Assembly (NCBI GenBank): GCA_963836755.1
Contig: CAWIKF010000002.1
Coordinates: 96,001 to 160,000 of the forward strand
Length of the DNA stretch: 64,000 bases
Direction of reading: 5' to 3'
Source: an uncultured Verrucomicrobiae bacterium
Lineage (GTDB): Bacteria > Verrucomicrobiota > Verrucomicrobiia > Chthoniobacterales > Chthoniobacteraceae
The notes below the pieces were generated by a model, which had not been told where the DNA came from, did not search any database, and saw nothing but the letters and a program-made list of their open reading frames with translations. Within the stretch, counting starts at the first letter, position 1; every line of letters starts with the position of its first letter. Of the stretch, positions 14,665 to 37,642 are shown one piece after another. Both the position numbers and the translations under genes were made by a program.

Positions 14665-14980
14665 TTCAGAGAAATTCCGCACTTTTTCAGAGAGATTCTG
14701 CATTGTTTCGGAGAGTCTCCGTGTCGTTCCAGAACGATTCTGCGTGCATGCAGAATGGTTTCGCACGCTTGCAGAATGGTTCCGCACGCCTGCAGAATGG
14801 TTCCGCGCGCCTGCAGAATGGTTCCGCGCGCCTGCGGAATGGTTCCGCGCGCCTGCAGAATGGTTCCGCGCGCCTGCAGAATGGTTCCGCGCGCCTGCGG
14901 AATGGTTCCGCACGCCTGCAGAATGGTTCCGCACGCTTGCAGAATGGTTCTGCGTCGCGGCAGAAGCGGTCTGCCGACCT
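14665..14980. repeat. 21-bp tandem repeat array 1 (about 15 units) with palindromic core GCAGAA-TGG-TTC(C/T)GC
   Basis: Ten near-identical units at 14750+21n (GCAGAATGGTTCCGCGCGCCT), with degenerate in-phase units at 14665-14749 and 14960. Confidence 0.95.
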
Positions 14981-36431: not shown

Positions 36432-36480
36432 AAAAAAAGCCGCGCAGCCGGATTTCTCCCCGGCTGCGCGGTTTTTGTTT
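36432..36480. terminator. Bidirectional intrinsic terminator
   Basis: A7 run, 12-bp stem CCGCGCAGCCGG/CCGGCTGCGCGG, T-rich tail; lies between convergent genes. Confidence 0.9.
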
Positions 36481-36494
36481 GCGAAGGTCTGCGC

Positions 36495-37178
36495 CTACGC
36501 CGGGTTCACGTTGACCGATAGCGACATGCTCCAGTCGCCGGTGGTCGCGTCGCCGTCGAGGTAGATCATCCGGTATTCACGGATCTCGGGCTGGTTCGCG
36601 ACCGCGAGCGGACGCGTGTCCACGAAGGGCGAGAACAGGTCGGTCCCGAGATCGGTCCAAGTCGCATCCGTCGGGTGACGGCTTTGAACTTTGACGCCAG
36701 TCCAGCCGTCTTTTTCCCATGGAAGGGTGACGTTGCCGGCGTTGGTATCGGTTACATGGAAGACCGGCGGCGCGGATGGCTCGGTCGGCGCTGGGCTGCT
36801 GGTGCCGTCAATGCCGAGGTCGATGCCGATCGCCACGGTGTAGGCCGGGTGGTTCACGATCCGGGCGATCAACGCACGCAGGCGCGCGATCACGCCGGGC
36901 AGCACGGCAGTCGGCAATGCGCCGAAAACCGGCAGCGACGGGAAGGGCATTCCGGTGCCAGTGCCATTCTTGATGAGGTTTTTGTAGCTCGTCATCGTCT
37001 GCGTGGAGGTGCGCAGCTGCTTCAAGACCTGGAGGTAAATTGCCTTCAGGTAGTTGCAATCGTTGACGGCTGAGGTGATTTCCGTTGCCAGCAAGCCGAC
37101 GTTGGGGCCTTGCAGTGGGATTTTGGCTGCGAAGTTCTCGAGCCAGACGGGCTGGGAACCTTCATTTTTAGGGATCAT
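36495..37178 (-). CDS. Uncharacterised 227-aa protein: predicted helical N-domain, Pro-rich linker, beta-rich (FN3-like) C-domain
   Basis: Clean ORF after an A-rich leader; WLENFAAKI...RIVNHPAYTVAIGIDLGI...W.K..W.GVKV.SR...FVDTRP...EIREYRMIY...GDWS; followed by the terminator. Confidence 0.85.
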   Translation of the reverse strand: MIPKNEGSQPVWLENFAAKIPLQGPNVGLLATEITSAVNDCNYLKAIYLQVLKQLRTSTQTMTSYKNLIKNGTGTGMPFPSLPVFGALPTAVLPGVIARLRALIARIVNHPAYTVAIGIDLGIDGTSSPAPTEPSAPPVFHVTDTNAGNVTLPWEKDGWTGVKVQSRHPTDATWTDLGTDLFSPFVDTRPLAVANQPEIREYRMIYLDGDATTGDWSMSLSVNVNPA

Positions 37179-37292
37179 TTTGTTTTTCTTTCTGTGTTGA
37201 GCCACGCCATGGATTGGCGCCGCGAAGCGATCCTGAGGGAGGAAAGCGTCGGTCGTGTGACGGAAAAGTTACTTTCCTGTGTCATTTTGGCC

Positions 37293-37604
37293 GGAAATGG
37301 CTTCTGCCAGTGTGCGGAGCCATTCTGCCGGTGGGCCGAACCATTCTACCGGTGCGCAGAACCATTCGGCGCGTCGGCAGAACCATTCTGCCCGTGCGCC
37401 GAGGCCTCTGACGGCTGGCAGAACCATTCTACCGGTGCGCGGAACGATTCTGCCGGGCCGCCGAGCCCTCCGCCGGCGCGCAGAATCATTCCGCCGGTGC
37501 GCAGAACCGTTCTGCCGGGTCGCCGAGGCCTCCGCCGGGGCGCGGAACCATTCCGCCGACGCGCAGAATCGTTCTGCCGAGGCGTAAAACCGTTCTGCAA
37601 CAGA
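37293..37604. repeat. 21/20-bp tandem repeat array 2, palindromic core GCAGAA-CCA-TTCTGC (reverse complement of the array 1 core)
   Basis: Units start at 37314, 37335, 37356, 37377, 37398*, 37418, 37439, 37460*, 37480, 37501, 37522*, 37542, 37563, 37584 (* = 20-bp variant). Confidence 0.93.
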
Positions 37605-37642
37605 GTAAACTGCCGCTTCCCGCGTGCTTCGGGAGAAACCGC

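Follow-up and report, generated by a model that had tools for sequence, protein, structure and literature searches.

A chromosomal DNA array with a fixed 21-bp period and free sequence is linked to a helical-FN3 gene family and may act as a spacing-read platform

In a 64,000-nucleotide stretch of DNA from an uncultured Verrucomicrobiae bacterium (the window), a tandem array of short repeats ends just upstream of a gene for a small protein, and we asked whether array and gene form one unit and what might read the array. On recomputation, the array, the gene, its terminator and a second array with the same core at 14.7 kb, all listed in a preliminary description of this DNA, proved real (Table 1). 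The partner gene occupies the junction of a plus-strand methyltransferase gene and a minus-strand GT4 gene, and 114 bp separate its start from the last array core. This leader (37179..37292), scanned for sigma-70, sigma-54 and terminator patterns, gave no match. Read from 36471 to 36440, the terminator hairpin is followed by a U run, and the other strand also carries a T run after the hairpin. The highest 19-residue hydropathy of the partner protein is 1.56 and it has no Pfam match, in agreement with the earlier statement that it lacks a signal peptide, a transmembrane helix and a glycan motif. Its placement in a glycan locus appears incidental, as array and gene are unrelated to that context; we rejected a glycan role because the neighbors do not recur among homologous loci. 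The locus region is absent from all 30 relatives compared, and contigs from one soil DNA run, which may be the source sample, span the gene-array junction.

Table 1. Coordinates of the features discussed, as positions in the window
Feature	Position	Strand	Remark
Intrinsic terminator region, hairpin 36440-36471	36432..36480	.	Between partner gene and convergent methyltransferase
Partner gene, 227 aa: helical domain (9-121) + FN3 (130-227), predicted homodimer	36495..37178	-	ORF, structure prediction
Leader, 114 bp, ends in A/C-rich stretch	37179..37292	-	Array-to-gene interval
Phased array, 15 units, core GCAGAA-N3-TTCTGC	37293..37598	.	Steps 21/21/20
Array-end motif TTACTCTG	37601..37608	-	Points into array and towards partner gene
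Orphan sister array, same core, 15 units	14666..14974	.	Between rhomboid gene and methyltransferase gene

Counted from 37598 down to 37293, the locus array advances by 11 steps of 21 bp and three of 20 bp, and its 21/21/20 pattern produces a 62-bp super-period (TRF reports periods of 21 and 62). Allowing at most one mismatch, 16 matches to the core GCAGAA-N3-TTCTGC are present in the window where 0.38 would be expected, seven of them in the locus array and nine in the 14.7-kb array, and no partner gene was found beside this sister array (14666-14974). The locus array is also 79% identical over 274 bp to an array on contig C1. The earlier count of about 15 palindrome copies stands for the number of units but not for their palindromy: only three of the 15 are perfect palindromes, seven lie within one mismatch, and three belong to a variant with a 2-bp center, GCRGAG-N2-CTCGGC, in which the shorter center is accompanied by a compensating change.

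Across the 3.18-Mb host genome we counted about 62 arrays, or roughly one per 50 kb with coding loops included; they fall into some 30 sequence families, and the majority lack a gene. TRF returned 66 long arrays with periods of 20-22, 41-43 or 62-63, of which 62 were kept; the four dropped were coding coiled coils or too weak, and the step/mismatch and grouping statistics retain three of them. A lag scan of the genome gave 63 regions at lag 21, 60 at lag 42 and 15 at lag 41, with four at lag 20, one each at 22 and 43, and no more than eight at unrelated lags. About 85% of array steps measure 21 bp (mean 20.9 bp), with 20 commoner than 22, and these lengths fit B-DNA at 10.2-10.5 bp per turn. 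Frame-breaking steps occur in 31 of 65 parsed arrays and in none of the four arrays inside genes. Dyad symmetry is enriched and optional (24 of 95 consensus units at p<0.05), and 11 of 15 multi-member core groups include a gene-linked array, one such group not being confirmed by blastn. The invariant feature of the arrays is neither the palindrome nor the glycan context but the 21-bp period with its 41- and 62-bp variants; sequence is free.

At homologous loci elsewhere, the period was found upstream of the gene in 41 of 44 cases and downstream in two of 44, counting full-length, non-duplicate loci with at least 400 bp upstream (seven short-upstream loci and near-duplicates were dropped); homologous loci share ancestry, so these linkage counts are not independent. 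Of the three loci counted as lacking an upstream period, one reached z 4.8, and another scan gave one of them z 8.1; partial homologue matches, scored apart, showed the upstream period in 4 of 15. At homologous loci the median array comprises 14 units, and 177 bp separate its end from the gene start. Within this genome, an upstream array accompanies 8 of 8 family loci versus 59 of 2776 called genes. By eye, 24 arrays here lie upstream of hypothetical genes of 200-350 aa or their remnants, only eight of which are members of the profile family; Pfam fn3 matched three of 19 scanned array-linked genes, many such genes are without FN3 and show weak kinship to the partner-gene family, and the non-family genes are more weakly linked. 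The proposal that array and gene form a module is upheld by these counts, homologues being strongly enriched for upstream arrays rather than devoid of such enrichment.

The partner-gene family comprises 2792 representatives at 50% identity. Named members belong to Verrucomicrobiota, Gammaproteobacteria and Armatimonadota, and the ESM Atlas matches are unnamed clusters only, Bacteroidota and Acidobacteriota among them. A family match was present in 7 of 251 genomes of the phylum (three of them weak) and in 23 of 61 of the taxonomic family, with up to 13 matches, and the distribution is thus patchy and multi-copy. We found no homologue of the partner protein in viral, phage and plasmid sets, and no shared neighbor enzyme among 384 flanking ORFs at homologous loci. 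In 400-kb samples, five genomes with a family match contained 11, 12, about 7, 1 and 0 true arrays, and genomes without a match contained 0 and 0, a contrast that is thin at n=2.

AlphaFold returned a confident helical domain followed by an FN3 domain. The FN3 beta-sandwich (residues 132-225) was matched at Z 10.9 with an rmsd of 2.4 A over 89 residues (Foldseek E 4e-5); for the helical domain Foldseek found nothing at E 0.001, and the top structural match had Z 6.4 with an rmsd of 3.9 A over 87 residues, a result that falls short of establishing a new fold. A homodimer was predicted with a score of 0.78 versus 0.10 for the best of three controls, and 20 of 30 solved one-chain pairs attain the mark applied, as does one of 23 single chains. 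Between runs, at least 66% of contacts are shared, pLDDT is at least 84, and the predicted interface is the long helix paired antiparallel, so that the partner protein is predicted to be a two-fold homodimer. We found no nuclease, recombinase, catalytic or known DNA-binding fold or motif in the protein, and no match to it in Pfam, NCBIfam, PADLOC or PHROGs; Rfam returned chance matches only. It is slightly acidic, and its FN3 domain carries several conserved basic residues set among conserved acids. Nine homologues (P0049, P0053, P0054, P0061, P0066, P0067, P0069, P0071 and P0175) bear an N-terminal extension of 35-55 residues with a repeated tryptophan motif.

A fixed two-turn period combined with free sequence calls for a reader or maker that measures distance. 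Because the partner family is the only constant partner and is predicted to be a two-fold dimer, we favor a DNA platform coated by that dimer, and we assign a probability of roughly 40% to the array being a spacing-read cis platform coated by the partner-protein family, with arrays that spread. The locus carries one copy of this widespread module, which consists of a 21-bp-period non-coding array, a helical-FN3 gene and a terminator, and arrays also spread alone. The array would work as double-stranded DNA on which the predicted dimers align every two helical turns, spacing counting for more than sequence. The partner protein would accordingly be a DNA binder, its coat would damp the adjoining promoter, whether of its own gene or of any gene beside which an orphan lands, and arrays would be copied by host recombination rather than by a module enzyme. 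Against the platform stand the lack of a DNA-binding fold, the net charge of about -2, a palindromy that is not universal, cores that are mostly shared among close proteins, and two gene-bearing genomes that are nearly array-free in the samples. Only tentatively do we extend the platform to a self-spreading element found in several phyla, in which the dimeric helical-FN3 protein would polymerize on DNA by period alone, while arrays of any sequence that preserve the 21-bp beat are born, swapped and scattered, essential genes included, promoters rewired and the chromosome organized.

Protein binding to phased sites, raised in the preliminary description, is thus the favored reading here; in its operator form the protein would read this particular core. 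Unrelated array cores sit beside proteins 81% and 75% identical, and the locus core GCAGAA-N3-TTCTGC recurs next to proteins 28-40% identical. Among protein pairs at least 70% identical the core is common to 64 of 92, a sharing among close proteins that could be explained by descent or by recognition. Because cores and proteins are uncoupled in these comparisons, the operator form is weakened. Array sequence changes faster than the partner protein.

We then considered the motif at the array end. TTACTCTG has 31 genomic copies, 21 of which flank an array; permuted words do so in 36 of 2068 cases and random intergenic sites in 6.7%. Its 10-mer form is array-flanking in seven of nine and five of seven cases in two same-genus genomes; outside the genus the motif is not enriched (2/53 upstream versus 2/53 downstream). 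The array lies 5' of the motif, which then points away from it, in 17 of 21 cases and 3' in four, the locus copy (37608-37601) included, and the motif faces outward at both array ends in 2 of 62. It contains TAnnnT, its array side and distance vary, and it could be a -10 box or, as it travels with the IspG insert, an end signal. We rejected the idea that it is a restriction-avoided word, as it is not under-represented. Words containing GTAC are very rare in the genome (GGTACC 4 and AGTACT 4, both strands), which suggests a restriction system.

A -10 box would suit a regulatory element recognized by the host's own factors, either nucleoid proteins or a transcription regulator, through a promoter bearing TTACTCTG, in which case the protein would be cargo with no job on DNA and the orphans strayed promoter cassettes. 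In two same-genus genomes the motif precedes partner-type genes by 20, 32 and 96 nt, and in this genome it precedes one by about 100 nt; this placement speaks for such an element together with the TAnnnT, the prevailing direction away from the array and the partner protein's lack of a DNA-binding fold; promoter-bearing MITEs are also known, according to the portion of PMC10969869 available. We nevertheless consider it unlikely, since about 30 unrelated cores in this one genome are too many for sequence-specific regulators, the next called gene after the motif is antisense in seven of 21 cases (sense in 14), one motif copy lies inside the IspG coding loop, and a sigma-54 pattern occurs in 2 of 82 leaders versus 0.8 expected. 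A sigma-54 enhancer was rejected: neither of those two -24/-12 patterns belongs to the partner family, and there is none at the locus. The two leaders (G000:C2:764535 and C2:1471140) precede array-linked genes of another subfamily.

Orphan arrays resemble their gene-linked sisters in the array and mostly not in the flanks, some still carry part of the leader or the opening 35-50 codons of a partner gene, and broken and truncated module copies are present. Four housekeeping genes each contain an array in frame, built of 21-bp steps only; from their sequence we take these genes to encode AlaRS, class II ribonucleotide reductase, an RND transporter and IspG. The IspG array is missing in five of five relatives (the loop has 399 nt here versus 123-207 nt), and the same AlaRS loop holds a different array in a same-genus genome, that is, an independent insertion in each of two species. 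Arrays do insert at new sites, and the suggested mobility is borne out for the arrays by these empty sites and separate insertions. Terminal inverted repeats were not found (inverted matches of at least 10 bp in 5 of 62 flank pairs versus a 2.8% null), and target duplications of at least 10 bp accompany 0 of 62 arrays, whose exact ends are unclear so that duplications of 2-9 bp could escape.

Such spread could also reflect a selfish element in which the protein assists array synthesis or copying by serving as a ruler or annealing scaffold and so fixes the 21-bp unit, with a HUH-type enzyme of the host using the 8-mer TTACTCTG as its nicking or end signal. Patchy multi-copy spread, the broken and truncated copies, independent AlaRS-loop insertions, the lack of target duplications of at least 10 bp and the presence of Y1 transposase domains in the genome are all consistent with this, as is the TTAC with which TTACTCTG starts, a resemblance to the IS608 target. 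We find it doubtful, however, given the missing catalytic fold, the absence of any reverse transcriptase found in the genome and of a shared neighbor enzyme, the lack of homologues in viral, phage and plasmid sets, and a motif that occurs on either array side at variable distance and is not enriched beyond the genus. As separate observations, the AlaRS open frame (L075, G000:C1:58953-62516, minus strand; 1187 aa) contains a 21-bp array and short palindromic inserts, in frame, as well as an in-frame Y1-transposase-like (RAYT) domain, and the AlaRS loop of G001 (L081) has, where arrays sit elsewhere, a 70-residue non-repeat insert that resembles a helix-turn-helix domain.

The preliminary description had also raised a hairpin-array RNA. 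A transcribed array would give a structured RNA bound by the protein, similar to a type III antitoxin; type III toxin-antitoxin loci place a tandem repeat array upstream of one gene. At the locus TTACTCTG points through the array to the gene, and the gene-sense strand folds as a long rod of -197.6 kcal/mol (z -7.7), but the opposite strand does so too (-176.6 kcal/mol, z -7.0), as is expected of any palindrome array. G.T mismatches slightly exceed A.C in arrays outside this genome (199 versus 180 pairs; 18 versus 8 of 30 arrays), whereas in 24 gene-linked arrays of this genome the two are balanced at 97 versus 99, with no strand bias. The period avoids 22, the A-form value; unlike type III loci, the module has no terminator between array and gene, has short palindromic units and leaves many orphans; and no fold, PADLOC or Rfam match to an endoribonuclease or antitoxin RNA family was obtained. 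We conclude that an RNA is improbable and that the earlier suggestion has little support.

A reading in which the arrays encode heptad-repeat peptides is very improbable. The 21 bp correspond to seven codons, in-gene arrays do read as heptads and frames are often open; against this, three 20-bp steps shift the frame in the locus array, 41- and 62-bp periods are common, and peptides of different cores share nothing. For the locus copy this reading is largely refuted already. We also rejected an integron cassette: no attC-like repeat is listed in the 64-kb window, although such repeats occur close to several other arrays.

Several further observations concern the surroundings of arrays in this genome. 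An integron-type integrase is encoded at G000:C2:765050-766066, and dozens of attC-like repeats form scattered cassette clusters, near C2 1.27, 1.34, 1.47 and 1.77 Mb and C1 0.70 Mb, several of which start next to an array or to an array with its gene. Large paralogues of secreted type, three of them sharing one N-terminus, adjoin arrays or array-gene units at G000:C1:229510, C2:641546, C2:709161 and C2:1904311. Two short helical hypothetical genes (G000:C1:161195-161704 and C2:1046063-1046542) have an array downstream, not upstream.

Comparison with known systems places the module beside several of them. Plasmid iterons with Rep and centromere arrays with ParR, TubR or SopB carry whole-turn repeats directly upstream of the gene for their binder, and repeats phased at whole turns upstream of a gene are likewise found here; unlike them, the present arrays are chromosomal and multi-copy, have no Rep, ParA or NTPase neighbor and have a sequence not tied to the protein. 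The fold matches of the partner protein include no winged-helix, ribbon-helix-helix or centromere-binding fold, and there is no Pfam or NCBIfam match. BrickBuilt and MITEPgRS of Porphyromonas gingivalis are dispersed intergenic tandem arrays of 23 and 41 nt in about 20 copies with promoter activity, as described in the part of PMC4596501 available, and dispersed intergenic tandem arrays with empty sites in relatives (IspG) are seen here as well. Each of those families, in the same part of that source, has one sequence, IS5-type terminal repeats and no partner gene, in contrast to the roughly 30 sequences, single period, missing terminal repeats and tied gene family found here. Rickettsia palindromic elements (RPEs) likewise place palindromic DNA in frame within unrelated housekeeping genes, but the available text of PMC10969869 presents them as single elements of ~150 bp, as opposed to tandem 21-bp units with about 30 sequences and a linked gene. 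PARCELs share tandem repeats, dyad symmetry, patchy spread and intragenomic shuffling; the accessible portion of PMC2996958 defines them as coding repeats of 25 codons that carry a conserved protein motif, whereas the present arrays are mostly non-coding and free in sequence. The module departs in a defining feature from each of BrickBuilt MITEs, RPEs, PARCELs, iterons and centromere arrays. A literature search, with subscription journals and supplements outside its scope, found no published description of the array-gene module, in keeping with its having been called undescribed.

One practical consequence is that 21-bp arrays explain many spurious heptad-repeat ORFs. Known repeat-protein pairs keep the repeat sequence, whereas here thousands of proteins accompany arrays that keep spacing only. 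A partner protein that reads the period would recognize DNA in a new way and offer a programmable scaffold; if it does not read the period, there is still a mobile repeat of a new kind to account for.
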